A DNA stretch of 64,000 bases from Desulfobacterales bacterium (GTDB taxonomy: Bacteria; Desulfobacterota; UBA8473). This document shows positions 13,972 through 31,339 of this stretch, piece after piece. The notes under the pieces were generated by a model. It did no database searches. It was not told the origin of the DNA and saw only the letters and a list, made by a program, of their open reading frames with translations. Each line of letters starts with the position of its first letter. Positions within the stretch are counted from its first letter, which is position 1. Position numbers and translations under genes: made by a program. The stretch covers positions 24,511 to 88,510 of the forward strand of contig JACQWO010000092.1 of the NCBI GenBank assembly GCA_016209225.1. The letters are read 5' to 3'.

Positions 13972-14183
13972 TTGCGCATCTTCTCAAGCTCTTTCAGCAT
14001 CTGAGCCTCTGTTATGTCCTCCTTTTTCATCAGCCATTTCAGGAATGACCTGCTCTTCCGGGCATAAGCCTTTTTGAGCGCTGATACGACAGCCTCCGAT
14101 GCGTCAGAGAATACGCCGAGCTTTATCTCCTCGTTAATGTTACGGTAGATGTCATCCGGAATCTGTGCTACGATTTTAGGCAT
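13968..14183 (-). CDS. Antitoxin partner of the PIN toxin (small DNA-binding protein); start at internal Met
   Basis: MPKIVAQIPDDIYRNINEEIKLGVFSDASEAVVSALKKAY...; the track ORF extends to 14243 in the same frame. Confidence 0.55.
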   Translation of the reverse strand: MPKIVAQIPDDIYRNINEEIKLGVFSDASEAVVSALKKAYARKSRSFLKWLMKKEDITEAQMLKELEKMRK

Positions 14184-14427
14184 TTCACACCTCCATGATA
14201 TTTGAATAAACCAATGATAACATAAAGTTTTCTGTTTGCACATCTTAAACTCTTATTGTCTTGTCTGCCTTATGTTTCCGCTTTCATCAAGGTACAGATA
14301 AAGCATTTATCTCCTATGTCTTGCTTGCATGTTTCTCATAAATATCTATCTCTCAACAAGAACACATCGCCTCTTGAATTATAGATATCGCATATTTTGT
14401 TTGCGCTGTCTGTTGCGTAGGCATCAT

Positions 14428-16810: not shown

Positions 16811-17656
16811 ATGATTGCTTTGAATACAAAAACTGAAACAGATGAAAAGACAGAGATTAAGCTGAAGCTGTATGTGGATGAGGTCTCCCTGGTTCTGAAT
16901 AAATTGGTTTGTATTAAATGCGATATATGTAAAACGGTTTGTCCCAAGGATGCTATCTCGGTGATACGGGATGAAAAAGAGGTCAGGATTGATATTGATG
17001 AGGGTAAATGTGTTCTGTGCGAGGTCTGCTCTCACTTCTGTCCGGTATCAGCGATTACTTTAACCCACAATAATGTTCCAAAGAGTATTCTTCTGGACAA
17101 CCAGGGGGTACTTTCATTTCCAAAGAGGATAGAGATAGATACCAGCAGATGTCCCAGTCACTGCTCTAAAAACCCTGAGGGAGAACACCGGTGGTGTCGC
17201 AAAAACGATGAAGTAATTGATAATACTTACGAAGACTGTCCCAAGTTCTGTTTTTCATGCGTTGAAAATTGTCCGAGAGACCTGATAGGGGTGGAAGGTG
17301 ATTCGGTAAAGCCCAATGAAGCCAGATGCCTTGGCTGTCCCCATTGCCAGGACAGTTGTGAATATGGTTCAATAAGCTTAACCCCTGTATTTTCTGGAGA
17401 GATAGGCATAGATAGCAAGCTCTGCCCTGAAGAATGTACCAGGTGCATAGACCTATGCCCGACAAAAGCGATTAGCAGAGAGGGGAAAGAAGTTGTTGTC
17501 AATGACAGATATTGCTCATTCTGTGGTGCATGTGTTAATATATGTGATAAAGAGGCAATCGACCTGAAAAGAACAGATGTGAAAGCGGAAGAGGGAGAGT
17601 TTTCGGCTGTCTGGTCAGATGCAGTGGACAAGTTAGTTGCTTCGCAACAAACTTGA
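16811..17656 (+). CDS. Polyferredoxin (multiple 4Fe-4S dicluster domains)
   Basis: 281 aa with about seven CxxCxxCxxxCP motifs. Confidence 0.8.
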   Translation: MIALNTKTETDEKTEIKLKLYVDEVSLVLNKLVCIKCDICKTVCPKDAISVIRDEKEVRIDIDEGKCVLCEVCSHFCPVSAITLTHNNVPKSILLDNQGVLSFPKRIEIDTSRCPSHCSKNPEGEHRWCRKNDEVIDNTYEDCPKFCFSCVENCPRDLIGVEGDSVKPNEARCLGCPHCQDSCEYGSISLTPVFSGEIGIDSKLCPEECTRCIDLCPTKAISREGKEVVVNDRYCSFCGACVNICDKEAIDLKRTDVKAEEGEFSAVWSDAVDKLVASQQT

Positions 17657-17661
17657 GAATT

Positions 17662-17720
17662 CAGTAGTCAGTAGTCAGAATGGAAATAATTTTCTGCTGG
17701 ATTCTGACTCCTGACTACTG
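17662..17720. repeat. 20-bp-stem inverted repeat built of AGTCAGT units between the polyferredoxin and hdrA genes
   Basis: cagtagtcagtagtcagaat...attctgactcctgactactg. Confidence 0.5.
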
Positions 17721-17737
17721 ACTTAATAGGTGATTCT

Positions 17738-20077
17738 ATGAACGAAGAGATACGGATAGGGGTATATGTCTGCCATTGCGGTAAGAACATCGCAGCGGTG
17801 GTAGACACGTCCGCTGTGGCTGATTTTGCATCATCTTTGAATGATGTAGTTGTAGCCAGGGAGAATACCTATTGCTGCGCTGAAACCGGTCAAGCCCAGA
17901 TTAGAGATGACATAAAGGAACACAACCTCAATCGGGTTGTGGTAGCCTCATGTTCTCCTAAACTCCACGAGCCCACCTTCAGAAGAACAGTAACAGAAGC
18001 CGGTCTGAATCCCTATCTAATGGAAATGGTAAATATCAGGGAGCACTGCTCCTGGGTCCATATGCGTGAGCACGATGCAGCGACGAAAAAGGCTATGGAC
18101 CTGGTTAAAATGGGGGTAGCAAAGGCAAGGCTTCTTCAACCATTGAGTGATAGAGAAGTGCCTACCACAAAGAATGCTCTGGTTATCGGTGGCGGTATTG
18201 CAGGGCTTCAGGCAGCCTCTGATATAGCCAATGCAGGTCATCATGTATATCTGGTCGAAAAGTCTCCTACCCTGGGAGGTAAGGTAGCCCAACTGTCGGG
18301 AGTCTCCTCAGGTTACCAATCCCCGGAATGCTTGCTTATTCCCAGGATGACAGAGGCAATGACCCACCCGAATATTGAGGTGTTCACAAACGCTGAGGTA
18401 AAGTCCGTAGATGGATATATAGGCAACTTCAAAGTTAAAATCATAAAACACCCCGGATATGTCAAGGAGAGCTGTATCCTGTGCGGTGAATGCAGCGCTG
18501 TATGCCCGGTAGAGGTGGCAAATGAGTTCAATGCAGGAATGGATTTTAGAAAGGCTGTCTACCTTCCCTTTGATCAGGCTACCCCTTCTACCTATGTGGT
18601 AGATATGGACCATTGTACAAGGTGTGGTCTCTGTGTTGAGAGCTGTCCTGTAGATGCTATAGATTTGGAAGAGGGAGAAGAGGAATTTGAGCTTGAGGTT
18701 GGCAGTATCATAGTGGCAACGGGTTTTGAATCCTTCGATCCCCAGAATAAGCCAAAGTACAGTTACAGTCAATTCAAGAACGTAATAACCTCACTTCAAT
18801 TGGAGAGGATGCTGGATCCTGAAGGGCCAACGGATGGCAAACCCCTAAGGCCTTCTGATGGCAGGAAACCCACAAAAATCGCCTTTATACAATGTGTTGG
18901 CTCCAGGGAGGAAGACGGGAACCAGTACTGTTCAAAAATTTGCTGCATGTCAACGATAAAACAGGCAAAGATACTAAAGTCCCTCTTCCCGGAGGCTGAT
19001 ATAACTGTGTATTATAGGGATATCAGGATTCCCAGGAGAGAGTTTGAGGAGATGTACAGAGAGGTCAGAGAGGCTGGAGTCCTTTTTGTAAGAGGAACAA
19101 TCAAGGATGTGTCGGAAACAGAGGATAATAACCTGCTGATAAGTGTATACAGCGATACTTTAAACGACTTAATCGTTCAAGACGTTGAAATGGTGATACT
19201 GGCTGTGGGGCTTGAGCATTGTAAGGATGGGGATTTGATAAAGGGAATAGTGAAGATTCCCACAAGCCCTGACGGCTTTTTTATGGAGGCCCATCCGAAG
19301 CTTAAGCCCATAGATACCGTTATTGACGGAGTGTATCTGGCTGGCGCCTGTCTGAGTCCTAAAGACATTCCTGAGTCTGTAGCCCAGGCAAGCGGGGCGG
19401 CAGCCAAGGTATGCGGTCTTTTCTCCAAAGACAGATTGAAGCTTGATGGTATAATATCGAAGGTGGATACAGATGTGTGCATTGGATGCGGGATTTGCAT
19501 AAAACAATGTCCCTTTCATGCCATCATGGAAGATGAAATTGAAGGAGAAAAGAAGGCAAGGGTTGTTGAGGCAGCATGTAAGGGGTGCGGTGTGTGTGCA
19601 GGAGCATGCCCGACAGGGGCAATAGAGGCGCTCAGCTTTACAACCGAACAGCTACATGCCCAGATAGATGCAGCACTGGAAGAGAATCCGGGAGAGAAGA
19701 TAATCGCTTTCTGCTGTAATTGGTGTTCCTATGCCGGTGCGGATTTTGCCGGTGTGTCCCGACTGCAGTATCCAACCAATGTGAGGATAATCCGTACCAT
19801 GTGTTCCGGCAGGTTGAGTAAGGACATCATACTCTATGCCTTTGAAAAGGGTGCGGGGATGGTCCTCGTCTCAGGGTGCCATCCACCTGGGGATTGCCAT
19901 TATGTATCCGGCAATTATAGGTGCGAAGAACGGGTGAATTCTTTAATGAAGACCCTGCCTAAGAAGGGTATAGACACTAAAAGGCTCAGGTTGGAATGGA
20001 TATCCGCTGCTGAGGGGGTTGTGTTTCAGAGGGTTACCAAAGAGATGGCAAATCAGTTGAAGGATTTAAAGGGGTAA
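17738..20077 (+). CDS. hdrA: HdrA-like FAD/Fe-S oxidoreductase fused to a C-terminal MvhD domain
   Basis: 779 aa; GGGIAGLQAA FAD motif, internal ferredoxin CxxCxxC motifs. The C-terminus IIAFCCNWCSYAGAD...VSGCHPPGDCHY is MvhD-like. Confidence 0.85.
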   Translation: MNEEIRIGVYVCHCGKNIAAVVDTSAVADFASSLNDVVVARENTYCCAETGQAQIRDDIKEHNLNRVVVASCSPKLHEPTFRRTVTEAGLNPYLMEMVNIREHCSWVHMREHDAATKKAMDLVKMGVAKARLLQPLSDREVPTTKNALVIGGGIAGLQAASDIANAGHHVYLVEKSPTLGGKVAQLSGVSSGYQSPECLLIPRMTEAMTHPNIEVFTNAEVKSVDGYIGNFKVKIIKHPGYVKESCILCGECSAVCPVEVANEFNAGMDFRKAVYLPFDQATPSTYVVDMDHCTRCGLCVESCPVDAIDLEEGEEEFELEVGSIIVATGFESFDPQNKPKYSYSQFKNVITSLQLERMLDPEGPTDGKPLRPSDGRKPTKIAFIQCVGSREEDGNQYCSKICCMSTIKQAKILKSLFPEADITVYYRDIRIPRREFEEMYREVREAGVLFVRGTIKDVSETEDNNLLISVYSDTLNDLIVQDVEMVILAVGLEHCKDGDLIKGIVKIPTSPDGFFMEAHPKLKPIDTVIDGVYLAGACLSPKDIPESVAQASGAAAKVCGLFSKDRLKLDGIISKVDTDVCIGCGICIKQCPFHAIMEDEIEGEKKARVVEAACKGCGVCAGACPTGAIEALSFTTEQLHAQIDAALEENPGEKIIAFCCNWCSYAGADFAGVSRLQYPTNVRIIRTMCSGRLSKDIILYAFEKGAGMVLVSGCHPPGDCHYVSGNYRCEERVNSLMKTLPKKGIDTKRLRLEWISAAEGVVFQRVTKEMANQLKDLKG

Positions 20078-20080
20078 AGG

Positions 20081-21736
20081 ATGAATAAAACCGGCATATT
20101 TCTATGTGTATGTCCGTCTATAATTTCAGCTATTGATATAGAAAAGACTGCAAAAAGTATAGAGCTAGCCAATACAGTTGTGTACTCCCATAGGTATCTC
20201 TGTTCACAAAGGGGATTGAGGTTTTTAGATGATTGTGTCGAGAAGGAAAAACTCGGTCGCATATTCATTGTGGCCTGTTCAGAGGATATTCACCGTCATG
20301 TCTTTGAAGGGGCATCTTCATCGAAAGGATATAGCATAGAATACATTGACATAGGAAAGGTTAAGGATGAAAAGGGTCTCATAGATTTAATAAAAGAAAG
20401 GCTGAAAGAGGACAGAGGGAAAACCATCGAGAAAGAGATAATGACCAGGGATGTCCTTGTAGTGGGTGGGGGTGTAGGTGGGGTTCAGGCTGCCCTGGAT
20501 ATCGCTGAAGAGGGTTACAGGGTTTATGTGGTTGAGAGTTCCCTGTCTGTTGGTGGTGTCATGGCTCAGCTCGACAAGACGTTTCCCACCATGGACTGTT
20601 CTATATGTATCCTTGGGCCAAAGCTCGTGGATGCCGGTAAACACCCCATCATCGAGTTAATAACAAATGCCGACATAAAGAGCATAACAGGCAAGGCAGG
20701 GAATTTCAATGTAGAGGTTGAAATAAAACCAAGGTATGTGGATATGGAGAAGTGCAACGGATGTAGCGCCTGTGTCGAGGTCTGTCCTGTGATATTGCCT
20801 AACGAATGGGACCTGAATTTAAAGTCCAGGAAGTGCATTTATGTGATGTTTGCCCAGTCTGTCCCCTTGAGATATACAATAGACAAAGAAAAGTGTATTG
20901 AGTGCGAACTGTGTAAGAAGGTCTGCAAATTGGATGCTATAAACCTCAACGAAGAACCAAAGAGGCGAACCTTAAACGTGGGGGCCATCGTTCTATCTAC
21001 AGGTACCGAGACATTCGATGCCTCCAGGAAAGAACAGTATGGATATGGCAGGGTGAAGAATGTAGTTACCAATATCGAGTTTGAGCGCATAGTGTGTGCA
21101 TCAGGCCCCACCAGTGGGGAACTCATAAGACCGGATGGTAAGCATATAAAGAAGGTTGCTTTTATTCAATGTGTCGGCTCCAGGGATTCACACTTCCACG
21201 AGTACTGTTCCTCTTACTGCTGTATGGCGAGTATAAAAGAGGGCAGACTGGTTATGGAGCACGAGCAGGATGCAGAGGTGTGGATATTCTATAATGACCT
21301 TCGCGCCTTTGGGAAGGGGTTTGAAGAGCTCTATGTACGGTCGGAAAAAGAAGGGATGAAGTTTGTTAAGGGTCTGCCTGGTGAGATAAGAGAGAATCCT
21401 GTAACTGAAAATCCCATTGTAGTATTTGAAGACCCGAAGGACGGGAAGCATAGTGAGGTTGAGTTTGATATGGTGGTCTTGGCAGTGGCGTTAGAACCTT
21501 CGGAACAAAATGCCCGCCTCGCTGAGATGCTCGATCTGGAGACCGACTCCCACGGTTTTTTCAAAGAGTTGGATTCCACTTCAATGCCTCTGGAGACCTC
21601 CAATAGGGGGGTATTTTTAGCCGGTACCTGCCAGGGGCCTAAGGATATACCGGAGACAGTCGCTCAGGCCAGCGGGGCAGCGGCAAAGGTGTGTGGGCTG
21701 TTTTCAGAGATAAACCAGACAGCAAAGAGGTTGTGA
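20081..21736 (+). CDS. hdrA: HdrA-like FAD/Fe-S oxidoreductase (second paralog, no MvhD domain)
   Basis: 551 aa; VVGGGVGGVQAALD, DCSICILGP, ferredoxin motifs; 3-nt gap after the previous gene. Confidence 0.85.
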   Translation: MNKTGIFLCVCPSIISAIDIEKTAKSIELANTVVYSHRYLCSQRGLRFLDDCVEKEKLGRIFIVACSEDIHRHVFEGASSSKGYSIEYIDIGKVKDEKGLIDLIKERLKEDRGKTIEKEIMTRDVLVVGGGVGGVQAALDIAEEGYRVYVVESSLSVGGVMAQLDKTFPTMDCSICILGPKLVDAGKHPIIELITNADIKSITGKAGNFNVEVEIKPRYVDMEKCNGCSACVEVCPVILPNEWDLNLKSRKCIYVMFAQSVPLRYTIDKEKCIECELCKKVCKLDAINLNEEPKRRTLNVGAIVLSTGTETFDASRKEQYGYGRVKNVVTNIEFERIVCASGPTSGELIRPDGKHIKKVAFIQCVGSRDSHFHEYCSSYCCMASIKEGRLVMEHEQDAEVWIFYNDLRAFGKGFEELYVRSEKEGMKFVKGLPGEIRENPVTENPIVVFEDPKDGKHSEVEFDMVVLAVALEPSEQNARLAEMLDLETDSHGFFKELDSTSMPLETSNRGVFLAGTCQGPKDIPETVAQASGAAAKVCGLFSEINQTAKRL

Positions 21737-21783
21737 GGAGATTATTAATTATTTGTAATGATTTCGGTGATATATGTTATATT

Positions 21784-21813
21784 GGGAATTATAAGCTGAA
21801 TAGACGAAATAAA
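21784..21813. repeat. Direct repeat copy 1 (GGGAATTATAAGCTGAATAGACGAAATAAA; extended match from 21771)
   Basis: Repeated at 22791-22820 with one mismatch. The pair brackets the HEPN/MNT cassette. Confidence 0.5.
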
Positions 21814-21826
21814 CACCAACCTATCG

Positions 21827-22135
21827 ATGGAAAGCACAACAATGAAAACTTTTAATGAAATCAAGAAGAGATTGTCCGAACAAAAACCAATTCTCCTAAA
21901 AAAATATAAAGTTAACCGCTTAGGCGTTTTTGGTTCGTATGTTCGAGGAGATCAACATCAAGGCAGTGATCTTGATGTGTTGATAGATTATGAAGATGCT
22001 CCAAGCCTCATTACTTTGATAGAATTGGAATACTACCTGAGTGAAATCGTTGGGGTAAAAGTGGACTTGGTAACTAATAAAGGTATAAAACCTCAACTCA
22101 AGGACTCTATTATCAAAGAGGTGGTTTACGTATGA
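21827..22135 (+). CDS. Nucleotidyltransferase (MNT) antitoxin of a HEPN/MNT pair
   Basis: 102 aa; LGVFGSYVRGDQHQGSDLDVLID is the minimal nucleotidyltransferase GS...DxD motif. Confidence 0.85.
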   Translation: MESTTMKTFNEIKKRLSEQKPILLKKYKVNRLGVFGSYVRGDQHQGSDLDVLIDYEDAPSLITLIELEYYLSEIVGVKVDLVTNKGIKPQLKDSIIKEVVYV

Positions 22136-22494
22136 CTCAGAGGACTGTTTTACATTTTCTTGAAGATATCTTGAAGGCAACCGATGCTATTTACGAGTTT
22201 GTGCTCGATATGAATTATGAGGCTTTCGCAAACGATGAGAAAACAATCCGTGCCGTAGAGAGAGAATTTGAGATTATTGGAGAAGCTGTTAAAAAAATTC
22301 CTGACTCGTTTACTAAAAAATATCCTGATATACCTTGGCGATCGGTTGCAGGGATGAAAGATCGTTTAACTCATCACTACTGGGAAACAGAAGCCGACAT
22401 TCTATGGAAAACGATTAAAGAATCTGTGCCACAATTAAAAGCGATCATCAAAAAAATGATCGAGAATGAGAGCATGGAAAAAAGATCCATGTAA
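22132..22494 (+). CDS. HEPN-domain toxin (HepT/DUF86)
   Basis: 120 aa; RLTHHYW fits the Rx4-6H HEPN motif; 4-nt overlap with the MNT gene. Confidence 0.85.
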   Translation: MTQRTVLHFLEDILKATDAIYEFVLDMNYEAFANDEKTIRAVEREFEIIGEAVKKIPDSFTKKYPDIPWRSVAGMKDRLTHHYWETEADILWKTIKESVPQLKAIIKKMIENESMEKRSM

Positions 22495-22527
22495 CGGGGC
22501 ATGTAACGGGCATGGCCATGTAACGGG
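22488..22527. repeat. Three tandem copies of CATGTAACGGGG starting at the HEPN stop codon
   Basis: catgtaacgggg catgtaacggg catggc catgtaacgggg. Confidence 0.5.
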
Positions 22528-22696
22528 GTCGGGCCACAGCAAGTATCGGATATTGGAACGAATAATTCAGAACTGTCCCCCTGAAATGGGCATATAATGT
22601 TCTTTTCGGGGCTGAAAAAGAGGATATAGTCTCCGAAAACACATATTCCTGGAACTGTAAACCATAAGAATCAACTACATACCTTGGCCCGACCCC
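22525..22696 (+). ncRNA. Candidate structured RNA bounded by a perfect 12-nt inverted repeat (GGGGTCGGGCCA ... TGGCCCGACCCC); possible retron msr/msd (a2/a1-like)
   Basis: The 12-nt inverted repeat flanks about 150 nt, the geometry of the Ec86 a1/a2 pair. It lies upstream of the PRTase gene. Confidence 0.25.
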
Positions 22697-22790
22697 AGGA
22701 ACCACCTTGCAATAAATGTCACAACAGGGATTACTAACAAGGGTTATTCAAGCACTTGAAGAAAACAGAATCCAATATATGATAACAGGT

Positions 22791-22820
22791 GGGAATTATA
22801 AGCTGAATAGACAAAATAAA
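22791..22820. repeat. Direct repeat copy 2 (GGGAATTATAAGCTGAATAGACAAAATAAA)
   Basis: See 21784-21813. Confidence 0.5.
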
Positions 22821-22916
22821 TTGTTATGGCATAGAGATCTAAATTAACCCTTCGGGTTGTGGTGTTATATAGAAACTTTAGAATAACTTGTTAGGGTAAA
22901 AATATAAGGAGGGATC

Positions 22917-24671
22917 ATGGCAAGTACGGTCGAAAAACTTCTTAGAGATAATGGATACTATTTATCTGACGGTCACTATAAGCTAGTTAGTGGGCGACAT
23001 TCGAATGCATATGTTCAGGCAAGAATATCTCTTATGGATCCAAAAATAAATAGTGAATTTCGCACTATATCTACAGAGTTAATTCGTGACCAGAATGTCT
23101 CTGCAGTAGCAGGATTTACAGTAGGAGGCCTACTACTCGCTGATGAAATCGCAAAATATACAAAACTTCCATTGGTAGTCGGGTATAAACCAATGAACGA
23201 TGTAGAATGGCTTGGTGCAGAAAACATTCGAGTTAATTCCAAAGTTCTTTTAGTTGATGATGTTTTAACAACGGCTTCACAGATAAGAACTGCTATACGT
23301 AGTCTTGAAGATATTAGTAATATCAGTGAACTCTTAATATTAGTCGCCGTTGACCGAAGCAATGGAGACTTGAAGATTAAATTTAGGGATGATGAAGTTA
23401 GGATATTGGACTGTATCAAAATTCCTTTATCATCATTTAATCCGAGTGAATGTCCTTCATGCTTTGCTGGGATACCTACAACTGACTTATCTAATCCTGA
23501 AAAAGACGTTGTATCTGTCGTTCTCACGCAACCTCGAGACAAATCTGACTTTATTTTAAAAGGTTATGAAAAAGTATATAAAATGCAACGAGACCAAAAG
23601 TCATTAGATGAAATGAAGGCGTGGAAATTATGGATGCCTGTACTTTTAGCAGGATTACCTATGGCAAGAGCAAAAGAAGATAGTAGTTTGATAAAGTTTG
23701 TAAGCTATTTAACGACTATAGCAGGAGAGCATAATATCAAACCGAGAGTACTCAGTGAGATAATAGGTCAGCTAATAAGGTTATCGTCAATACGAGTTGA
23801 ATCTAGGGCCATTGGCTGTTCTATGATTGTTGGCAATATAGATGAAATCGGTAATATCCTTGAATCAAGGGCGAGAGTTAGAATGCCAATAAATATAAAC
23901 CATGAAAAGCTAACAGAGCTTGTACCACACTTCGATGCACTGTTAGAAACAAATTATGCTATCGTGTTAAGCAATGATGGAAAAGCAATAGACTTCCGAA
24001 GACTCAATTTTAGTAGATCAAGACGCTATATAGAAGGCATAGAGTTAGTACGTTTTGTTACTGCAAATTCTCGGTCCATCGGTTTTGTTCTCAGGCGAGG
24101 AAGGAGTGCTATTGCTGTATATAATAATGGACGACTTGAGGCTATTGGTGAATTATCTGAAAGAAGTGGGCTTTGGGAATTTTCTAGGCCAATGGATAGG
24201 ATAGAAGAAATTCAATCAATATTAAAAAGAAATGTTCAAGAGTTACTTTTAACTTTGGTAGAAGCGTCAAGAGAACTAGTTGCTAGAGGGCATGGTGCAC
24301 TATTTGTGGTTGGTAACGTAGACTCTTTAAACCATACAGTGCCCAAAATTGAAATTGAACCTCAGAATATTAAAGACATGACAATAGAAGATTTAGTTGA
24401 ATTAGCAAAACTTGACGGTGCAGTATTGATAACTGAAGACGGCAGATTACTTCAAGCCACTGTCATATTGAAGAATCGAGATGAAGGGACCTTTGCAGGT
24501 CAACAAGCTGGTACTACGCATGGTGGCAGTCGGAAAGAAACGGCAATAAGAACAAGCATAGAATGCCCAAATTGCGCGGTGATTAATATTTCTCAAAATG
24601 GTGCTATTGAAATATATGTTCACGGAGAGTCATGGCCAATTTCTGAATCATTTTCAGGATTGTCACGATGA
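22917..24671 (+). CDS. Phosphoribosyltransferase-domain protein fused to two degenerate diadenylate-cyclase (DAC/DisA_N)-like domains; putative retron/defence effector
   Basis: 584 aa; PRTase PRPP loop NSKVLLVDDVLTTASQI. The C-terminus ELVARGHGALFVVGN...LDGAVLITEDGRLLQATVIL...GTTHGGSRKETAIRTSIECPNCAVINISQNGAIEIYVHGE aligns with CdaA but lacks RHR. An earlier degenerate copy is present. Candidate -35/-10 at 22857-22884 and a strong RBS. Confidence 0.7.
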   Translation: MASTVEKLLRDNGYYLSDGHYKLVSGRHSNAYVQARISLMDPKINSEFRTISTELIRDQNVSAVAGFTVGGLLLADEIAKYTKLPLVVGYKPMNDVEWLGAENIRVNSKVLLVDDVLTTASQIRTAIRSLEDISNISELLILVAVDRSNGDLKIKFRDDEVRILDCIKIPLSSFNPSECPSCFAGIPTTDLSNPEKDVVSVVLTQPRDKSDFILKGYEKVYKMQRDQKSLDEMKAWKLWMPVLLAGLPMARAKEDSSLIKFVSYLTTIAGEHNIKPRVLSEIIGQLIRLSSIRVESRAIGCSMIVGNIDEIGNILESRARVRMPININHEKLTELVPHFDALLETNYAIVLSNDGKAIDFRRLNFSRSRRYIEGIELVRFVTANSRSIGFVLRRGRSAIAVYNNGRLEAIGELSERSGLWEFSRPMDRIEEIQSILKRNVQELLLTLVEASRELVARGHGALFVVGNVDSLNHTVPKIEIEPQNIKDMTIEDLVELAKLDGAVLITEDGRLLQATVILKNRDEGTFAGQQAGTTHGGSRKETAIRTSIECPNCAVINISQNGAIEIYVHGESWPISESFSGLSR

Positions 24672-24691
24672 TAAAAACCCTAACCCATAAG

Positions 24692-24762
24692 GTTTGATCT
24701 GACCGGGCGACGTGAATAGAGTATAAAAAGCTGAGCTTTCGCTCCCGGTCAGAATCAAACCA
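24692..24762 (+). ncRNA. Long hairpin (17-bp stem GGTTTGATCTGACCGGG / CCCGGTCAGAATCAAACC, 36-nt loop) in the 269-bp gap upstream of the NDT-like and RT genes; second msd-like candidate
   Basis: Imperfect only by one bulged A. It is followed by a 10-bp inverted repeat ATGCGTAACC / GGTTACGCAT at 24789-24798 / 24868-24877, and has no T-run after it. Confidence 0.3.
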
Positions 24763-24940
24763 TTGTTCAACAACAGCATGCACATGAATGCGTAACCGCA
24801 AGGTGCTTTTTGGCTTTTGATTATTTTACTTTTGCAAAGCATCTTTGAGCATGTTTACAAGATACAGGTTACGCATCAGTGATGCTCGCGTTAGACATAT
24901 AAATAATTAAAGATCATGGCTGGTGTAACATCAAGAAATT

Positions 24941-25507
24941 ATGAGTGATATCAAAGAATCAATAACAAGATTTGGCAATGATTTAGAGGATATTTTCTCA
25001 GAACGTAGAGCTGTTGTTTTTCTCTGCGGCCCGTCTTCCAAAGACCTAGATCATCCTGGTGCACAATTACGCGTCGACCTTGAGGAAGCATTAAAGCAAG
25101 AAGGCTTCGAGGTGATTCTAGGAGAGGATGATGGGCTTGAAAGCCTCAGGCATAAATATAGTAACTATGCACATGAAAATGAATTGATGTTTATTCAAAA
25201 ACACTGCAATGCAGTGATCCTTATCGCTTCTAGTGTTGGTGCCTACTGTGAATTGGGTTTATTTTCTTACAAAAAAGTTCATGACTTAGAAAGCATGACG
25301 GATTTTATTTTAATAATTAGCAATGAATATGAAAATGTACAATCTTTTTTAATCGAGGGACCAGCTGCTGCTATCGATGATTTTGGGAAAGTTTTTTACG
25401 GAGACTTATCTAATTTTGATTATAGCAATATTATTAAAAGGTTGAGGCGGAGGCGCTCTGTTTATTTTACAAGTCACAAAGGTCGTCCACCTTCATTTAA
25501 TGAATAA
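24941..25507 (+). CDS. Nucleoside 2-deoxyribosyltransferase-like (NDT-like) protein, the effector class of type II retrons
   Basis: 188 aa; AVVFLCGP (compare IYLAGP) and AVILIASSVGAYCELGLF (compare DSGTAFELGYA); 2-nt gap to the RT gene. Confidence 0.65.
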   Translation: MSDIKESITRFGNDLEDIFSERRAVVFLCGPSSKDLDHPGAQLRVDLEEALKQEGFEVILGEDDGLESLRHKYSNYAHENELMFIQKHCNAVILIASSVGAYCELGLFSYKKVHDLESMTDFILIISNEYENVQSFLIEGPAAAIDDFGKVFYGDLSNFDYSNIIKRLRRRRSVYFTSHKGRPPSFNE

Positions 25508-25509
25508 CG

Positions 25510-26991
25510 ATGCGAGTAACATTAAACGAAAATATACTACTCTGGGCGGCAGCAGTTTTACAACCAGCTTCTGCGGCTGATGTTAGAAGTTTTATTGCAT
25601 CAATTTATCCAGAAATTTCACTACTCCCCAATATTGGAGAAATCGAAAATATTTTTTCAACTTGGCGAGAAGAAGGGTATTTACAGAGAGTTCATGGTAA
25701 ATCAAGATTGTATTCAGCAACTTACAAAACAAATTTAAAGCTATCAGTAAAGCTAAGACGAAGCAGGGACAAGTCCCGTCTTTTCTTGCTTAAATCTACA
25801 AGAGCTGCTAATGTGAATGTATCGGGGGTACGAGAACAGGATTCGGTTGGCGATTCGCCATCCACGGAAGGTAGCATAATTTTACAAGAGGGTGCGTGGC
25901 CAATAAAACCGGCCGCTGCTCCTCGGGTTCCTCGGACCACCGGCCGATTTTATTGGCCACGGATCTCAAAGCAACTAAGTATTGAAGTTGGCCCTAGTTT
26001 TTCGTCCCCCGATACATTTTTTAACTATTATTCATTCCCTTCTATCAAAACCATTCATGAGGCTAGTCATAAGCCTGCTTCAGAAAAAGATCTAAGTATA
26101 ACAGATATCTCTTTAGCCATTGGAATAAGTCCGCGGCTCATTACATCCTTTATTCATGCCCCTGAAAACCATTATAGGCAATTTAAAATTGGTAAACGAG
26201 GTGGTGGAGAGCGTGTTATAAATTCGCCTAGAACATTTTTAAAGGTGGTTCAATACTGGATATTAGATTATCTGCTTCATTCTTTGCCTTGTCATCCGAA
26301 CTGTCATTCCTACCAAAAAGGAAAGTCTATTTTGTCTAATTCTCTTCCTCATGTTGGGCAAAAATATTTAGCAAACATTGATATTTCTAATTATTTCCCA
26401 TCAATTAATGAAAAAATGGTTTTCTCTCTTTTAAGAGACAATAATTTTGGAGAACAGTTATCAAAAGCCGTCGCCCGTATTGTCACACTTGAGAATGGTT
26501 TGCCCCAGGGCGCACCAACTAGCCCAATTATTTCCAATGCGTTTCTATGTAATTTTGATGAAATTATGACTCAGCGAGCTTTGTCTTTTAATCTTGTATA
26601 TACAAGATATGCAGATGACATGACTATAAGCGGGGAAAATAAAGAGAATATAATTAGTTTGATAAAAAATTTGTCTGCTAATCTCAAGGATATGGGCCTC
26701 TCCATTAATGAGAAAAAAACAAGGATCGCGAGTCAAGGAGGACAGCAAAAAGTGACAGGCATAGTTGTAAACGAAGTTTCGCAACCACCTCGTACTTATA
26801 GAAGGAACATTAGATCAATGTTTCACCATGCAGAGAGAAACCCAGAATTATTTGCAGACAATATTAAAGTTCTGAAAGGATATATAAGTTATTTGCAAAG
26901 TTTTCCGAATATGCAAGGGAAAAAAGAAATATTCAGATATAAAAATGTTTGTAAAACAATTGAAAAGAATTTTGTCCAACAATCGCATTAG
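25510..26991 (+). CDS. Retron-type reverse transcriptase with an N-terminal extension of about 190 aa
   Basis: 493 aa; FKIGKRGGGERVINSP, LPQGAPTSP, YTRYADDMTISG (YADD), and the retron-specific QKVTGIVVN (VTG). Confidence 0.85.
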   Translation: MRVTLNENILLWAAAVLQPASAADVRSFIASIYPEISLLPNIGEIENIFSTWREEGYLQRVHGKSRLYSATYKTNLKLSVKLRRSRDKSRLFLLKSTRAANVNVSGVREQDSVGDSPSTEGSIILQEGAWPIKPAAAPRVPRTTGRFYWPRISKQLSIEVGPSFSSPDTFFNYYSFPSIKTIHEASHKPASEKDLSITDISLAIGISPRLITSFIHAPENHYRQFKIGKRGGGERVINSPRTFLKVVQYWILDYLLHSLPCHPNCHSYQKGKSILSNSLPHVGQKYLANIDISNYFPSINEKMVFSLLRDNNFGEQLSKAVARIVTLENGLPQGAPTSPIISNAFLCNFDEIMTQRALSFNLVYTRYADDMTISGENKENIISLIKNLSANLKDMGLSINEKKTRIASQGGQQKVTGIVVNEVSQPPRTYRRNIRSMFHHAERNPELFADNIKVLKGYISYLQSFPNMQGKKEIFRYKNVCKTIEKNFVQQSH

Positions 26992-27036
26992 CTCATATAA
27001 ATAAGCATAAGCAATTATTGAAAGGAGGAATATATT

Positions 27037-27240
27037 ATGGATAAGGCTCTTTTAGAAAAAGCATTAGAAATGTCACCGAATGAAAGGGTAGTACTTGCTG
27101 AGTTAATCCTAGCTAGCATCGATCATGAAGAAGATGAAATTCGCGAATTATGGCTTTCTGAAATAAAAGACCGTATAAAAGCAGTCAATGAAGGTAAAGC
27201 AAAATTATTAGATTTTGAAAGGCTATACAATGAAAGTTAG
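27037..27240 (+). CDS. Putative addiction-module antitoxin component (orphan, no toxin gene adjacent)
   Basis: 67 aa; MSPNERVVLAELILASID...LSEIKDRI fits the small alpha-helical antitoxin family usually paired with RelE/ParE-like toxins. Confidence 0.55.
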   Translation: MDKALLEKALEMSPNERVVLAELILASIDHEEDEIRELWLSEIKDRIKAVNEGKAKLLDFERLYNES

Positions 27241-27308
27241 TATTGGATAGTGTTTAAATACTCGGTTCACATTTATGTTTTTTGGACATCCTCAAATAAG
27301 GTAATTCT

Positions 27309-27770
27309 ATGGCAAAGCTATCCATGTACCAACTGTACCATTATCTCCCGAAAACCGATTGTGAGAAGTGCGGCTTTTCATGTATGGGATTCGCTAATCG
27401 CCTTATTTCCAGAGATGTTAGACCGGAGGATTGCCCTTTTCTATTGGAACCGGAGTACTCAGAGTCCCTGACTGAACTGAACAGGCTTCTGGGCCCTGAG
27501 GTTGAGAAAGAGATCACAGGGCTTATAATAGACCAGGAAAAGTGCAATGGATGCGGTATATGTGTTACTGTATGTGAGGTAAATATGGAAAAGAGTCAAG
27601 AGGTAGGAGCGGGGAGAGGTCCTGGCTTTTCAGATGAGGTTGTGTTACGAATAGATAATGGGAAGATTAAGCTGGTTGACCCCCAATCTTGCAGACGGGC
27701 AAACCCCTCTTCCCATATCTGCAGGGCATGTGCGGAACTATGCCCCACAAAAGCTATTAGCCTTGTGTGA
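27309..27770 (+). CDS. Small Fe-S protein: N-terminal CFeSP/CdhE-like 4Fe-4S motif plus ferredoxin-like cluster motifs
   Basis: 153 aa; LPKTDCEKCGFSCMGFANRL...CPF resembles the corrinoid Fe-S protein large-subunit N-terminus; then CNGCGICVTVC and CRACAELCP. Confidence 0.6.
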   Translation: MAKLSMYQLYHYLPKTDCEKCGFSCMGFANRLISRDVRPEDCPFLLEPEYSESLTELNRLLGPEVEKEITGLIIDQEKCNGCGICVTVCEVNMEKSQEVGAGRGPGFSDEVVLRIDNGKIKLVDPQSCRRANPSSHICRACAELCPTKAISLV

Positions 27771-27772
27771 TT

Positions 27773-27895
27773 GTAACTATTCAGGTAGGCACAAAGGCAC
27801 AGAGCACCAAAGGCACAAAGTTAAGAAAAAACAACGAAACGACCCTGCTCTGCTTTGTGCCTATGTGCCTTTGCCACTTTGTGCCTGAGTAGTAC
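27773..27895. repeat. GTAACTAYTCAGG-TIR MITE-like hairpin element, copy 2, inserted between the Fe-S gene stop and fwdB
   Basis: Near-identical arms to 4783-4918; right end cctgagtag-tac has a 1-nt deletion. Confidence 0.6.
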
Positions 27896-27915
27896 TAAAT
27901 AGACGGAGGTAAAAT

Positions 27916-29202
27916 TTGTCGGAAATACTGTATGAATCTGTAGTATGCCCCTCCTGTGGCTGTCTGTGTGATGACATAGATGTAGTCGTTGAGGAGAATC
28001 GGGTAAAGAGCATAAGAAATGTATGCGAATGGGGCATAAGCAAGTTTCTTTTTACCAAGAAGTTCACTCCAAATGTAAAAAGGGGACGGGTAGAAAAGCC
28101 GATGATAAGGGAAAAAACTCTGGTAGAGACCGACTATGAGGCAGCTATCTCCAGGGCAGTGGATATCTTAAAGGGTTCAAAAAAACCCTTGATTTATGGA
28201 CTGACAAACTCAGGGTATAACGCCCAAAAAATCGCACTAAGTATTGCAAGAAGGTTAAAGGGATTGTTTGAACCAAGGGGGGCAGCCCTCTTGAGCTCAT
28301 ATTATGCCGCAATGGGTGATTCAAATTTCTACGTAGCACCTCTGGAGGAGATAAGGAACAATGCCGACCTTATAATATATTGGGGATGCAACCCTATACA
28401 TTCTACCCCAAGACACCTGGCCCGATATTCTGTATATCCAAGGGGGAGATGCAAGGAGAGGGGAAGCCAGGACAGGGTGGTTTTTACTGTGGATGTTGCC
28501 GAAAATGAGATGGGAAAGCTGTCCCGCCGGTTTCTTCAAGTGGAACGGGGCACTGATTTTCTGGTAATGGAAACTATGATGAAATTGCTGAGGGAGGAAA
28601 ACGCTGAAGACTATAAAGGGGATATCGCTACTATAGAAAATATGGTCAGGCAGATGACAAAGGTGTCCTATGGTGCGATATTCTTCGGCATGGGATTGTC
28701 AGCTAAGGATAATGCTGCGAAAAACATTGAGAATCTGATGGCGCTGGTTAAGGAGTTAAACAGGAAAACCAGGTTTGTGATTCTTCCTCTTTATGATGAT
28801 TTCAATACAAGCGGGGTGATACAGCTTCTTATCAGGGAGTTGAAAAGCCCAATGCCGGCGGATTTTTCCGGTGATCACGTCGCCAAAAACAGTAAATACT
28901 CCTTGTTGGAAAACCTCCATGAGATAGACGCTGCATTAGTCGTTGGAGATGACCCATTTTGGTCTCTTCCCTCTGAAAAGTCCGATTTGTTGAAAAAAAT
29001 ACCTATGGTTCTCATCGATCCTTACTGGACAAGGACAACCAACAAGGCCCAGGTGGTTTTCCCAACAGCCGTTACGGGTATAGAAGCAGAGGGGATTGCT
29101 TACAGGATGGATGGTCTGCCCCTCAAATTGAAAAAGGTCCTGGAGAGCGAATACCCATCGGACGAGAGTATATTGGGAGACATATATCAGCGTTTGCAAT
29201 AA
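27916..29202 (+). CDS. fwdB: Formylmethanofuran dehydrogenase subunit B-like (FwdB/FmdB family)
   Basis: 428 aa; N-terminal VVCPSCGCLCDDIDVVVEENRV...CEWGISKF matches the FwdB Fe-S motif; length fits. Confidence 0.75.
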   Translation: MSEILYESVVCPSCGCLCDDIDVVVEENRVKSIRNVCEWGISKFLFTKKFTPNVKRGRVEKPMIREKTLVETDYEAAISRAVDILKGSKKPLIYGLTNSGYNAQKIALSIARRLKGLFEPRGAALLSSYYAAMGDSNFYVAPLEEIRNNADLIIYWGCNPIHSTPRHLARYSVYPRGRCKERGSQDRVVFTVDVAENEMGKLSRRFLQVERGTDFLVMETMMKLLREENAEDYKGDIATIENMVRQMTKVSYGAIFFGMGLSAKDNAAKNIENLMALVKELNRKTRFVILPLYDDFNTSGVIQLLIRELKSPMPADFSGDHVAKNSKYSLLENLHEIDAALVVGDDPFWSLPSEKSDLLKKIPMVLIDPYWTRTTNKAQVVFPTAVTGIEAEGIAYRMDGLPLKLKKVLESEYPSDESILGDIYQRLQ

Positions 29203-29212
29203 AGGAATTCCC

Positions 29213-30613
29213 ATGAAGATAAAGATAGAAGGCGGAAGGCTATACGATCTCAGGAACAACCTGGATGGAGAAGAGAGGGACATCTTCATAGAGGACGGCA
29301 TAATAGTAGAAGGGTTCTCCAGTGCCGACAGGACTATTGATGCCTCTGGAAAAGCCATTATGGCAGGAGGCATAGATGTACACAGTCATATAGCTACCTA
29401 TGGTTTAAACCTGATAAGAGGGACGAACCGCTTTTATTCCCCCAGCGAGATTGGTCATATATACGCTAAAATGGGCTACACCCACGTAAACGAACCCTTC
29501 ATGACCCAGGTCACAGCCAACTACGTTCATCATGAACTGTCCTCAATACCTATATTGGACACCTCCGCCTTTTTGGTGCTGAACCTCAGGGATGTTGAGG
29601 GCAAGATCAAGTCTGCTAAGCATCTTGAAGAGGTTGAGAAGATTATACCCATCATTATTGCCGGCACCAAGGCTATCGGGTTAAAGATATATGAACCCTT
29701 TGTGAAATATGCTGAGAGAAAGTATATTCTGAGAAATGTAACTGCGAAGAAGGTCCTGAGTTTCTTTTCAGGAATGAGCAGGGAAAGTATCCCAAGGATA
29801 ATCATGCATACTTCCCCTGAACTCTTTGGTGAAGAGATTGAAAATCCCGGAGGCTTCCACTTCTCCCATGTTGGGTCAGCCATAGGCAATGAAGAAGCCT
29901 ACCAGAAGGTCTTGAGCTACCTTAACGCAGGGGCAACTATAGATTTAGGGCTATTCGATCTTGAGCAAAACTTAAGGATATCAAATCCTAAACAGACCGT
30001 TGGCGAGGTTTTCGGGAGGGTAGATATGGGGCTTTCAGAGGATATTGTGTTCTCGAAAGGAAAAGTCTCTGGGAGTGAAGCCCCATTTTTTGCCTTTAAA
30101 CTTGCCCTTAGCCAGCCCTCTAATCATATATCTTTTTCCACGGACAGCCCTGCCAATGCCTCATTTGAGGCGTACCCCAAGATATTTTCATGGTTGATGA
30201 AGGCAGAGAATAGGGCTAACCTGTTCGATAAAGAGCTTCCGGAGTTTGAGTACTCCCTCCTGGATATTGCAAGGATTACCAGGCATAATCCTGCATATAT
30301 CCTTGGTTTAAAAAATAAAGGGCATTTAGGGGCAGGGGCAGAAGCAGATATAGCCATCTATGATATTAACGAAGAGACAAAACCGTCTGAACTGGAGGCT
30401 CGCTTTAAAGACTGCGCCTATCTGATAAAGAGTGGCAGTATTGTTGTGGAGGATCATCAGATGGTAAATGACCAGGTAGAAAAGAAGACCTATTACAGAG
30501 GCGTGGAGCCCCTTGATTATGAACCTGCAAAGATTATGACAAGCTACAGCACCTTCCGATTCGAGAACTTTATAGTAGACGAGGTGTTTACCGCTGAAGA
30601 GGTTAAGATTTAA
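29213..30613 (+). CDS. fwdA: Formylmethanofuran dehydrogenase subunit A-like amidohydrolase (FwdA/FhcA family)
   Basis: 466 aa; GGRLYDLRNNLDGEERDIFIEDGIIVE...IDASGKAIMAGGIDVHSHI. Confidence 0.75.
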   Translation: MKIKIEGGRLYDLRNNLDGEERDIFIEDGIIVEGFSSADRTIDASGKAIMAGGIDVHSHIATYGLNLIRGTNRFYSPSEIGHIYAKMGYTHVNEPFMTQVTANYVHHELSSIPILDTSAFLVLNLRDVEGKIKSAKHLEEVEKIIPIIIAGTKAIGLKIYEPFVKYAERKYILRNVTAKKVLSFFSGMSRESIPRIIMHTSPELFGEEIENPGGFHFSHVGSAIGNEEAYQKVLSYLNAGATIDLGLFDLEQNLRISNPKQTVGEVFGRVDMGLSEDIVFSKGKVSGSEAPFFAFKLALSQPSNHISFSTDSPANASFEAYPKIFSWLMKAENRANLFDKELPEFEYSLLDIARITRHNPAYILGLKNKGHLGAGAEADIAIYDINEETKPSELEARFKDCAYLIKSGSIVVEDHQMVNDQVEKKTYYRGVEPLDYEPAKIMTSYSTFRFENFIVDEVFTAEEVKI

Positions 30614-31012
30614 GCATTCAAATTCAAAGTCTTTTTCCAAACCCTGTCAACTGGATTCTATGAACTGTTACGATTTTTCTTGAAATTTATTTGTATATAG
30701 AGTAAAAGTATACAATAGTGTGCTCATCCTCATACTCTAATTGAACCCGAGATTACCTATACTGTACCCAATATCTATAATCTTGCCATGAGAGTGACCT
30801 AGTAATAGTTTTAGGTTCAGATTCACTATTGTATCCCAATTAGGATGCCGAAGATTCCAGATACCTTCCGCAATTTCTATTCTTACATGAGCACGGCAAG
30901 AGAGTAGAACGATCAAAACCACTTTATAACTTCAATAAAGTAGAATTCCCGAGATATTTTTAATTATTCGACGCTTGAGACTAAAGTTTGTCTACTTTAC
31001 TTCTTAACAAAA

Positions 31013-31211
31013 TTGAGAGCTTTGAAAAAGTACCCCTTTTCGCTTCAGCATACATTTTTTGACCCATCTAAGCTCGCTTCATTGAAAATTCACAAACTCA
31101 CCCTTCGGGCTCAAATATGTGAATTTTCTACATTCCGCTCTCTAAGAAGGGTTCCCCAAAAAATCTATACAATTCGCTCTCAGGGAGCTTCTTCAAAGCT
31201 CTCGGTAGGTT
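31013..31211 (+). mobile_element. 199-bp GAGAGCTTTGAA-TIR MITE-like element, copy 3, about 130 bp upstream of cdhA
   Basis: The track ORF 31013-31276 is spurious. Confidence 0.7.
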
Positions 31212-31339
31212 GTGCAAATATCTCAAAAGGGGGTGAATGGAACCGGGAAACTCACAATTTAGTACAGGGTGGATAAAGATTGGCGCTTAGATTTAATATT
31301 TTTATGTTGGCAAATATTTTTAAATAGGAGGGAGAAGAT

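Follow-up and report, generated by a model that had tools for sequence, protein, structure and literature searches.

A PyrE-like phosphoribosyltransferase fused to a pseudo-DAC and DAC tandem: a rare protein family with pyrimidine-gene neighbours and a putative regulatory cassette

Diadenylate cyclase (DAC) domains are usually treated as symmetric synthases of cyclic di-AMP (c-di-AMP) placed under N-terminal sensors, and DACs with varied N-terminal domains are well known. In the active enzymes, such as DisA and CdaA, two DAC domains come face to face with one ATP each. Type I phosphoribosyltransferases (PRTases) bind phosphoribosyl pyrophosphate (PRPP) with a loop made of an acidic pair followed by T-T-G-x-T, and orotate phosphoribosyltransferases (OPRTs) are obligate dimers. 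Here we analyze a protein, which we call PRT-DAC, in which a PyrE-like PRTase domain is followed by two DAC folds. It is encoded on a stretch of 64,000 nucleotides (the window) from a Desulfobacterales bacterium (GenBank assembly GCA_016209225.1, contig JACQWO010000092.1, positions 24,511 to 88,510 of the forward strand), where the open reading frame (ORF) at 22917–24671 (+) starts with ATG and is open throughout its 584 codons and stop. The product (P0001 in our numbering) is 100% identical to MBI4621482.1, from a Desulfobacterales metagenome-assembled genome, and carries the annotation 'DisA nucleotide-binding domain protein'. The two DAC folds form an evolutionary unit, which stands behind varied N-terminal domains that handle nucleotides or pyrophosphate. 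In its genomic surroundings, the PRTase-fused family has pyrE, pyrF and pyrH as its only recurrent partners.

Both this architecture and the wider cassette are apparently undescribed. In our literature search, neither a PRTase-DAC fusion nor a pseudo-DAC and DAC tandem turned up; a 2023 survey sorting DACs into 22 architecture families, cited in PMC12901056, lay outside the reach of that search. DACs in phage defence were reported in 2025–2026, with hybrid signals made where the active site is asymmetric. Compared with the described DAC/DisA_N family (DisA, CdaA, CdaM/DacM and DacZ; PF02457), PRT-DAC differs in having two DAC folds per chain with the first one motif-less, R-K-E in place of the RHR motif, scores under the NCBIfam equivalog cut-offs, and a PRTase as the N-terminal partner.

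The original prediction, made from the letters of the DNA, was a PRTase fused to two catalytically divergent DAC domains, the first more eroded than the second. The strings that it quoted (GHGALFVV, LDGAVLI, GTTHGGSRKETAIRTS, NISQNGAIEI, RAIGCSMIVGNIDE and LSNDGKAIDF) are all present in the translation, and the fusion is borne out by Pfam, which recognizes Pribosyltran and DAC, together with a fold search for the copy in between. The Pfam DAC model covers residues 449–571 with 47.5 bits against a cut-off of 27 (E 1.6e-12), a profile of the C-terminal domain finds DisA in the PDB at 1.7e-4, and the domain has the alpha/beta DAC fold of the PF02457 family. For the middle domain (residues 291–432) the Pfam scan gave no match, nor did its profile match any PDB sequence; hhalign aligned it colinearly with the C-terminal domain at E 0.005 and 7% probability. 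Foldseek searches of the PDB and BFVD with the full-length protein were dominated by PRTase matches and were uninformative for the DAC parts. Modelling with AlphaFold on 21 family members gave a confident structure (pLDDT 84.8, pTM 0.70), and it was the fold search that proved decisive for an internal DAC duplication. The second, middle copy is therefore real, as had been suspected, though nearly unrecognizable in sequence.

In the C-terminal copy the DGA motif is kept, D500 and G501 being invariant and A502 at least 90% conserved in the family, and so are the Gly ahead of R539 and, in the S-x-x-G strand, the Ser. HMMER aligns G-T-R-H-R of DisA with G537-S538-R539-K540-E541, where R539 is invariant, the His has become Lys and the last Arg has become Glu, so that of RHR only the first Arg remains. 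The claim that both RHR and the glutamate of the 'SEE' motif are replaced has to be modified: RHR does read R-K-E now, but its first Arg is kept and invariant, and DisA reads SHS at the 'SEE' position, so that this glutamate is not universal in active DACs. The middle copy is without DGA (columns N/Y/A and variable) and without anything like RHR; its own invariants are E295, R297, D340, E344-T345, R394, R396, Y402 and W420. Divergence of both copies from the catalytic consensus, as originally proposed, is thus clear. The DisA equivalog NF010009 scores 29.8 bits against a cut-off of 201, and the CdaA and DacZ NCBIfam equivalogs do not match the window protein at all. The original prediction leaned to a sensor rather than a cyclase; given the residues that are kept and the R-H pair seen in relatives, the C-terminal DAC may have residual or altered catalysis.

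The N-terminal domain is most similar to PyrE of the Thermus/Helicobacter type (TIGR01367; structures 4paw, 5hki and 2yzk). The NCBIfam model pyrE_Therm (TIGR01367) matches residues 5–190 end to end with 65.2 bits, short of its equivalog cut-off of 150.25, and TIGR00336 gives 40.7 bits, short of 106.8; the Pfam Pribosyltran match (residues 42–162) has 26.9 bits against a cut-off of 26.3. For the modeled domain, the best Foldseek matches are OPRTs (4paw with E 3.6e-10 and TM(target) 0.75; 2yzk and 5hki with TM 0.72–0.75), which places this type I PRTase fold nearest to OPRT, and PyrR and PurR are also among the structural matches. D114, D115, T118 and T119 of the PRPP loop are invariant in 21 of 21 family members. 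In 19 of the 21, the TTGxT 5-phosphate loop has A, S, P, T, D or E instead of its Gly, with TTASQ in the window protein; only P0021 and P0022 keep the Gly. The genuine PyrE proteins encoded next to PRT-DAC homologues keep the loop (DDVVTTGKS, DDVATTGQS). PRT-DAC is like PyrE in the colinear match, the DD pair, the TT pair, the fold and the pyrE/pyrF/pyrH neighbourhood of its loci, and differs from it in the score (65 versus 150 bits), the lost loop Gly and a C-terminal extension of 390 residues. It is unlikely to be a housekeeping OPRT, because genuine pyrE genes usually adjoin it. PyrR and PurR, in which the PRTase fold serves at least partly in ligand sensing (PRPP, UMP, ppGpp), provide a functional analogy for a PRTase as sensor; in both, what the fold is coupled to is binding of RNA or DNA instead of a DAC fold, and their relation to PRT-DAC is one of fold only.

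The DAC pair is far more common than the fusion. A profile of residues 190–584, searched against 1.84 billion representative proteins, matched at least 376 proteins at E<=1e-3, 144 at E<=1e-10 and 24 at E<=1e-30, and only about eight matches are full-length PRTase fusions. Most of the cassette proteins are 650–830 residues long and have both DAC folds at the extreme C-terminus; both domains are present in 138 of 170 sequences examined, and in 127 of these 138 no more than 20 residues follow the module. The N-terminal partners include TIR plus PRTase (P0147), AMP-binding adenylate-forming domains (P0227, P0194) and a PPDK_N ATP-binding domain (P0216), and other relatives have a long N-terminal region without a Pfam match. 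A GAF domain, guessed by eye from GEGISG at the N-terminus of the relatives of about 790 residues, was rejected, since Pfam gave no match there even at E<=1. Across the cassette the DGA positions of the C-terminal copy hold D in 150, G in 158 and A in 153 of 165 sequences. At the RHR position R is found in 157 of the 165, followed by H (122), K (22) or R (11) and by a variable third residue; Lys in place of His marks the PRTase-fused clade. The middle copy never has DGA or RHR, and it keeps E295 (132/134) and W420 (112/113). No cassette relative passes the NCBIfam DAC equivalog cut-offs, and the tandem-DAC part has no match in 72,556 plasmids or 50,697 phage records.

Homologues of PRT-DAC itself are rare. 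A search of 5.8 billion proteins yielded 22 clusters at 42–100% identity, scattered over Desulfobacterales, Sedimentisphaerales, Pirellulales, Chloroflexi and one Methanotrichaceae archaeon. Besides the window, 18 further non-redundant loci were obtained; all ORFs within 5 kb of the homologues were clustered and then scored against curated models. A pyrE, pyrF or pyrH gene adjoins PRT-DAC in 13 of the 19 loci and is present in seven of the eight that have at least 3 kb of flank on both sides, the window being the exception. Genuine pyrE is found in nine loci (TIGR00336, 116–134 bits against the cut-off of 106.8), pyrF passing TIGR02127 in two (L004 with two copies, and L008), and archaeal-type pyrH passing TIGR02076 in L006 (two copies), to which a kinase pair in L091/L107 is syntenic. 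These neighbours therefore link the family to the last steps of UMP/UDP synthesis.

Some of the pyr genes in these loci are unusual in themselves. Tandem pyrE-pyrE fusions of 434–443 residues, with two full OPRT domains, lie beside the homologues in L001:5732–7036, L088:11966–13300(-) and L089:11929–13260(-), and a fourth, in L007:11177–12501(-), looks disrupted (two out-of-frame tblastn pieces and a 321-residue ORF). In L001 the fusion is followed by a gene for a 221-residue protein with weak JAB-like PADLOC matches, and an integrase and an SSB gene belong to the same locus. Two pyrF paralogues, 44–48% identical by tblastn, are located at L004:3904–5627, and the two archaeal-type pyrH genes of L006 at 13569–14903, one of them shorter. 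Among the cassette relatives, P0147 (L107:281–2662, the same as L091:314–2695) is a TIR, PRTase, pseudo-DAC and DAC protein of 793 residues, and its gene precedes two amino-acid-kinase-family genes that are syntenic with the pyrH pair of the Methanotrichaceae locus L006. In the regions L108:1959–7971 and L109:736–6748, the gene of P0163 (about 790 residues, the N-terminus without a Pfam match) overlaps an upstream radical-SAM/SPASM gene and faces a pair of PPDK_N and PEP-utilizer genes. L006 likewise has radical-SAM/SPASM genes. The PPDK-type domain beside P0163 recurs as the fusion partner of the cassette in P0216 and in a gene that adjoins PRT-DAC in L005.

How might such a protein work? Both DAC halves lie in one polypeptide and would therefore constitute a built-in, asymmetric pair. 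We favour, with a probability of about 0.45, a putative regulatory role in which binding of an adenine nucleotide to the cassette would switch the attached PyrE-like domain. The single preserved site (DGA, Gly-Ser-Arg and Ser) would bind ATP, ADP/AMP or c-di-AMP; the second site has lost its nucleotide-binding residues and has conserved charged residues of its own. The PyrE-like domain, with its acidic PRPP pair intact and its 5-phosphate loop altered, could bind PRPP, orotate or ligands of the orotidine monophosphate type, and might pair with a genuine PyrE subunit, a possibility we raise because OPRTs are obligate dimers. Pyrimidine-nucleotide production would in this way be tied to adenine-nucleotide status. 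Such regulation would explain why the cassette is fused to unrelated ATP-, AMP-, pyrophosphate- or PRPP-handling domains, and we favour it for the PRTase-fused clade because there the His is replaced, the charge of the last Arg is reversed and the PRPP loop is eroded. Conceptually similar arrangements, with a duplicated nucleotide-binding fold of which one half is degenerate, are known from class III cyclases (mammalian adenylyl cyclase C1/C2), degenerate GGDEF domains and CBS-pair Bateman modules. These are widely fused to other enzymes as regulatory or asymmetric catalytic units; their folds are unrelated to DAC, and the analogy to the cassette is conceptual only.

Several observations weigh against a regulatory cassette. 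The C-terminal copy keeps most of the catalytic residues, with R-H in 122 of 165 relatives, and would fit an enzyme equally well. In many relatives a long unannotated N-terminus and the order of sensor followed by DAC output favour a cyclase output. Relatives of pyrE and pyrF are absent from the 64 kb of the window (pyrH was not used as a query), and the pyr genes found next to homologues might be housekeeping copies of their hosts; the tandem pyrE-pyrE fusions and the duplicated pyrF and pyrH argue for dedicated paralogues instead, and the duplications in particular suggest as much. Some settings also look mobile or immune, namely the integrase and SSB of L001, the transposases of L007 and L103 and the TIR fusion of P0147. 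Others are plainly metabolic: ATP synthase, ETF and CoaE genes in L004, PPDK in L005, adk and pyrH in L006. The original prediction had been said to fail if close homologues proved to be housekeeping enzymes outside any defence island. Half of that picture is what we see, in the pyrE, pyrF and pyrH neighbours; the other half is at odds with the mobile contexts and the one TIR domain.

Our preference for regulation over catalysis is slight, and we regard a working nucleotide cyclase of a new DAC class as unlikely, yet as the most serious competitor. The C-terminal DAC would then be catalytic, through intermolecular C-terminal dimers or with the pseudo-DAC as asymmetric partner, and its product would be c-di-AMP or a dinucleotide related to it, which might be a hybrid. 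Synthesis would be gated by the PyrE-like domain as a sensor of PRPP, orotate or a nucleotide, a part that PRTase-fold domains play in PyrR and PurR. The DAC Pfam match well over its threshold, the conservation of DGA, the Gly, the first Arg of RHR and the Ser of the S-x-x-G strand, and the C-terminal location of the cassette, the usual place for DAC outputs, all agree with this, as does the presence of the PRTase-fold regulators PyrR and PurR (ppGpp or PRPP) among the structural matches. The cassette as a whole has G-x-R-H with a variable third position, so the loss of the last Arg is not peculiar to PRT-DAC. A minimal DAC is moreover reported to make 3'3'-cUA through a break in active-site symmetry (PMC13640738). 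What tells against a cyclase is the active site of this particular clade. In DacA of Mycobacterium tuberculosis, changing RHR to AAA abolishes ATP binding and activity (PMC3328451), and PRT-DAC has Lys for the His and, as a reversal of charge, Glu for the last Arg. The Lys occurs specifically in the PRTase-fused clade and hints at chemistry that has been relaxed or altered there, and the scores are far under the NCBIfam DisA, CdaA and DacZ cut-offs. The loss of the 5-phosphate loop Gly is compatible with a sensor and no proof of one. A more specific and much less probable variant is that the cassette is a built-in asymmetric cyclase, with ATP in the preserved site and another nucleotide in the degenerate one, which has conserved Glu, Arg and Trp residues. 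In the PRTase-fused family the latter would be a pyrimidine nucleotide supplied locally by PyrE, PyrF and PyrH, and the product a hybrid, for instance a U-A dinucleotide. If true, hundreds of proteins with TIR, PRTase, adenylate-forming or PPDK-type fusions would belong to one widespread and new class of nucleotide-signal synthases, and some of them could act in immunity. An independent anti-phage protein, abortive-infection or signaling, is compatible with a regulatory or a cyclase mechanism and seems to us improbable, somewhat more so than a cyclase as such. The PRTase would be a nucleotide-pool effector, or the DAC cassette a generator or sensor of signals, and PRT-DAC would keep the company of retron and toxin-antitoxin genes as a defence gene itself. 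Its island of low GC at third codon positions, with MNT/HepT, a type II-A retron and an antitoxin-family gene, the rarity and scatter of the family across distant taxa and the mobile settings named above fit this idea. No other observation points as strongly to immunity, for part of the family, as the TIR domain at the N-terminus of P0147. PRTase-like proteins are also effectors of type III retrons, and DAC proteins have been validated in defence: DS-2 (third gene, NF053872 DS2_3_antiphage) and Panoptoo, whose PanS resembles PRT-DAC as a DAC-fold protein in an accessory or defence context and makes the hybrid signal 3'3'-cUA with an asymmetric DAC active site. PanS is a minimal single DAC, whereas PRT-DAC is a tandem fused to a PRTase. 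Similarity to the DS-2 DAC is negligible (15.6 bits against a cut-off of 630), and PRT-DAC has no CBASS or S2TM-beta partner; among the genes scanned at 16811–33847 there is no cGAS/CD-NTase or phospholipase neighbour. PADLOC searches of the homologues' neighbours and the cassette relatives gave nothing significant (a weak JAB-like match for the 221-residue neighbour and a weak TIR/PRTase match for P0147). Also unfavourable are the metabolic neighbourhoods of L004, L005 and L006, the absence of the tandem from the plasmid and phage records and the lack of a conserved effector or partner typical of signaling defence systems among the neighbours.

The remaining alternative comes from the genes downstream, which by their sequence belong to a type II-A (II-A2-like) retron. 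The ORF at 24941–25507 (+) encodes a 188-residue NDT/STM3845-like effector (NDT_II-A match, 169 bits, E 2.3e-50). The ORF at 25510–26991 (+) encodes a reverse transcriptase (RT) of 493 residues that matches RT_II-A PDLC02940 over its full length (599.7 bits, E 8.7e-181) and passes the NCBIfam retron_St85_RT cut-off (255.2 versus 235 bits). PRT-DAC could be a third retron component, a sensor or co-effector with NDT and RT, and a coupling to the neighbouring RT had been implied in the original prediction. PRT-DAC ends 269–270 nt before the NDT gene on the same strand and has a similar GC content at third codon positions (GC3), type III retrons pair RTs with PRTase-like proteins, and the NDT effector and a PRTase both act on N-glycosidic or ribose-phosphate chemistry. 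The comparative data largely refute this proposal, which we consider very improbable. With the window RT and NDT as tblastn queries, none of the 18 other PRT-DAC loci gave a match, and these include the closest relatives (81% identical, L097–L102; 79%, L096; 61%, L103); the supposed constant neighbourhood with RTs is thus not observed. In the other direction, RT homologues are far more numerous than those of PRT-DAC, with more than 2,600 clusters at E<=1e-30 as compared with about 22. The nearest RT relatives with usable context (82%, 73% and 69%) all keep the 188-residue NDT and the RT of about 493 residues, have a type IIG restriction-modification enzyme, HSP20 and Thoeris upstream, respectively, and have PRT-DAC beside them in none of the three cases. 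The NDT and RT genes are 2 nt apart and form a self-contained cassette of exactly 2,051 nt in the window, L104 and L106. DNA similarity to the closest PRT-DAC contigs covers 22890–24685 and then ends, and that to the closest retron contig covers 24915–26982, starting 26 nt ahead of the NDT start codon. Type II-A2 retrons consist of NDT and an RT with an N-terminal DNA-binding extension and have no PRTase or DAC partner (Mestre et al. 2020, PMC7736814). Type III-A retrons (RT plus a PRTase-like effector, for example Retron-Eco11) are alike in having a PRTase-like gene beside a retron RT; the window retron is instead of type II-A with its own NDT effector, PADLOC at E<=0.01 assigns the PRT-DAC protein to no family, including the PRTase_III-A models, and the association is unconserved both ways. 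The two-way surveys and the separate DNA blocks therefore indicate a juxtaposition of two independent modules. PRT-DAC appears not to be a component of the adjacent retron, with which it happens to share an island, and adjacency to a retron in a single genome is no evidence of functional coupling.

The features of the gene are listed in Table 1. Its GGAGG falls within the block of DNA similarity that is common to the closest homologue contigs. The linker between the PRTase and the pseudo-DAC has no Pfam match over residues 196–290; its helices in the model are at 198–204, 207–223, 227–237, 240–244, 256–271 and 276–290, and P194, E195, Y217, Q224, W239, P248, R251 and E254 are invariant in the 21 family members.

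Table 1. Features of the PRT-DAC gene and the adjoining intergenic DNA (window coordinates)
Feature	Position	Strand	Remark
Shine-Dalgarno-like GGAGG	22908..22912	+	4-5 nt ahead of ATG; UAUAAGGAGGGAUC abuts 22917
Whole ORF: PyrE-like PRTase, helical linker, pseudo-DAC, DAC	22917..24671	+	584 aa
Orotate-PRTase-like (Thermus-type PyrE-like) domain, residues 1-195	22917..23501	+	Pfam, NCBIfam, Foldseek
PRPP-loop D114-D115-V-L-T118-T119, then A-S-Q in place of G-x-T	23256..23273	+	family alignment
All-helical conserved linker, residues 196-290	23502..23786	+	DSSP of model
Pseudo-DAC domain (DAC fold without DGA or RHR), residues 291-432	23787..24212	+	
DAC domain with modified active site, residues 433-584	24213..24668	+	Pfam DAC
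Retained DGA motif D500-G501-A502	24414..24422	+	alignment to DisA KMDGAV
R539-K540-E541 at RHR position	24531..24539	+	HMMER alignment to DisA GTRHR
17-bp stem-loop, possible terminator without U-tract	24691..24761	+	20 nt past PRT-DAC stop, in 229-nt joint

The 229-nt joint between the two modules (24686–24914) matches neither the PRT-DAC nor the retron homologue contigs and folds much better than shuffled sequences (z -3.7 to -3.9). Apart from the stem-loop past the PRT-DAC stop, which is strong and also speaks against PRT-DAC as a third retron component, it carries a long imperfect hairpin at about 24788–24876. The 269-nt spacer as a whole (24672–24940) was considered as an msr-msd and rejected: it folds (z -3.7, -3.9), but the upstream regions of related retrons are not alignable with it (53% identity) and are not alike in structure (z -1.9, 0.8 and 0.2).

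A better candidate for the retron noncoding RNA (ncRNA) sits within the RT ORF. The msr-msd-like element at 25821–26013 (+) has closing repeats (ATCGGGGG/CCCCCGAT), a short 5' hairpin and a central hairpin of about 30 bp with 28-nt arms (25895–25961), which gives it the closing repeats and long stem of a type II-A2 retron ncRNA. Its counterparts are L104:1770–1962, L105:~6141–6333 and L106:~3275–3467. Across the four loci the element is 88% identical in DNA, though the RT proteins are only 69–82% identical, and RNAalifold predicts 64 pairs, eight of them with compensatory double changes. Codon periodicity is normal on either side (third positions 0.42–0.65 identical) and is lost over 25781–26020, where all three positions are 0.73–0.92 identical. 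The RT frame nevertheless stays open (493 residues in the window and L104, 492 in L106; the L105 gene was called shorter, at 446). There are two readings of this. In one, the linker that connects the N-terminal domain with the RT is translated and contains the ncRNA; in the other, the ORF runs together two genes with an untranslated ncRNA between them, and the 'N-terminal extension' of type II-A2 RTs would then join two genes.

The GC3 of PRT-DAC is 0.25, and PRT-DAC, NDT, RT and antitoxin genes together range from 0.25 to 0.30. The island at 21827–27240, including MNT/HepT, has 0.24–0.37, as against 0.46–0.50 in the flanking core genes, and PRT-DAC is therefore part of a horizontally acquired accessory island. 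It stands alone, was acquired horizontally and belongs to a rare protein family. The island is set between genes of energy metabolism: on the left it is flanked by hdrA/mvhD-like genes (17738–21736), and on the right (27309–33847) by ferredoxin, molybdopterin-oxidoreductase-family and amidohydrolase-family genes, together fwd-like, and a prismane/CODH-like gene. Its left edge is an MNT/HepT toxin-antitoxin pair (NTP_transf_2 plus HepT-like; 21827–22494, +) and its right edge an 'Unstab_antitox' family gene (27037–27240, +); a 73-residue ORF at 27250–27471 has no family match and overlaps a ferredoxin-like ORF. The DNA between HepT and PRT-DAC contains, at 22510–22710 (+), an element of about 200 nt that folds strongly (z -3.8) and has a GC-rich closing stem of 21 nt (22525–22545 / 22676–22696). 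It has no Rfam match and is absent upstream of the closest homologues, and its arms (GGGGTCGGGCCA) are not repeated elsewhere in the window or in the fetched loci; it could be a leader, a small RNA or an insertion remnant. An Rfam scan of 21500–27600 at E<=1 returned two chance-level eukaryotic matches only, and no riboswitch upstream of PRT-DAC.

In summary, genes of this kind that are labelled 'DisA nucleotide-binding domain protein' or 'diadenylate cyclase' encode a second DAC fold that the label conceals, and their function is probably another one. The tandem, in which a motif-less DAC fold is joined to a near-canonical one, makes a natural candidate either for a new adenine-nucleotide-sensing module, which would be the DAC-fold counterpart of CBS pairs, or for a hard-wired asymmetric cyclase. 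For the PRTase-fused family, the linkage to pyrE, pyrF and pyrH provides a concrete, testable tie between the cassette and the supply of pyrimidine nucleotides.

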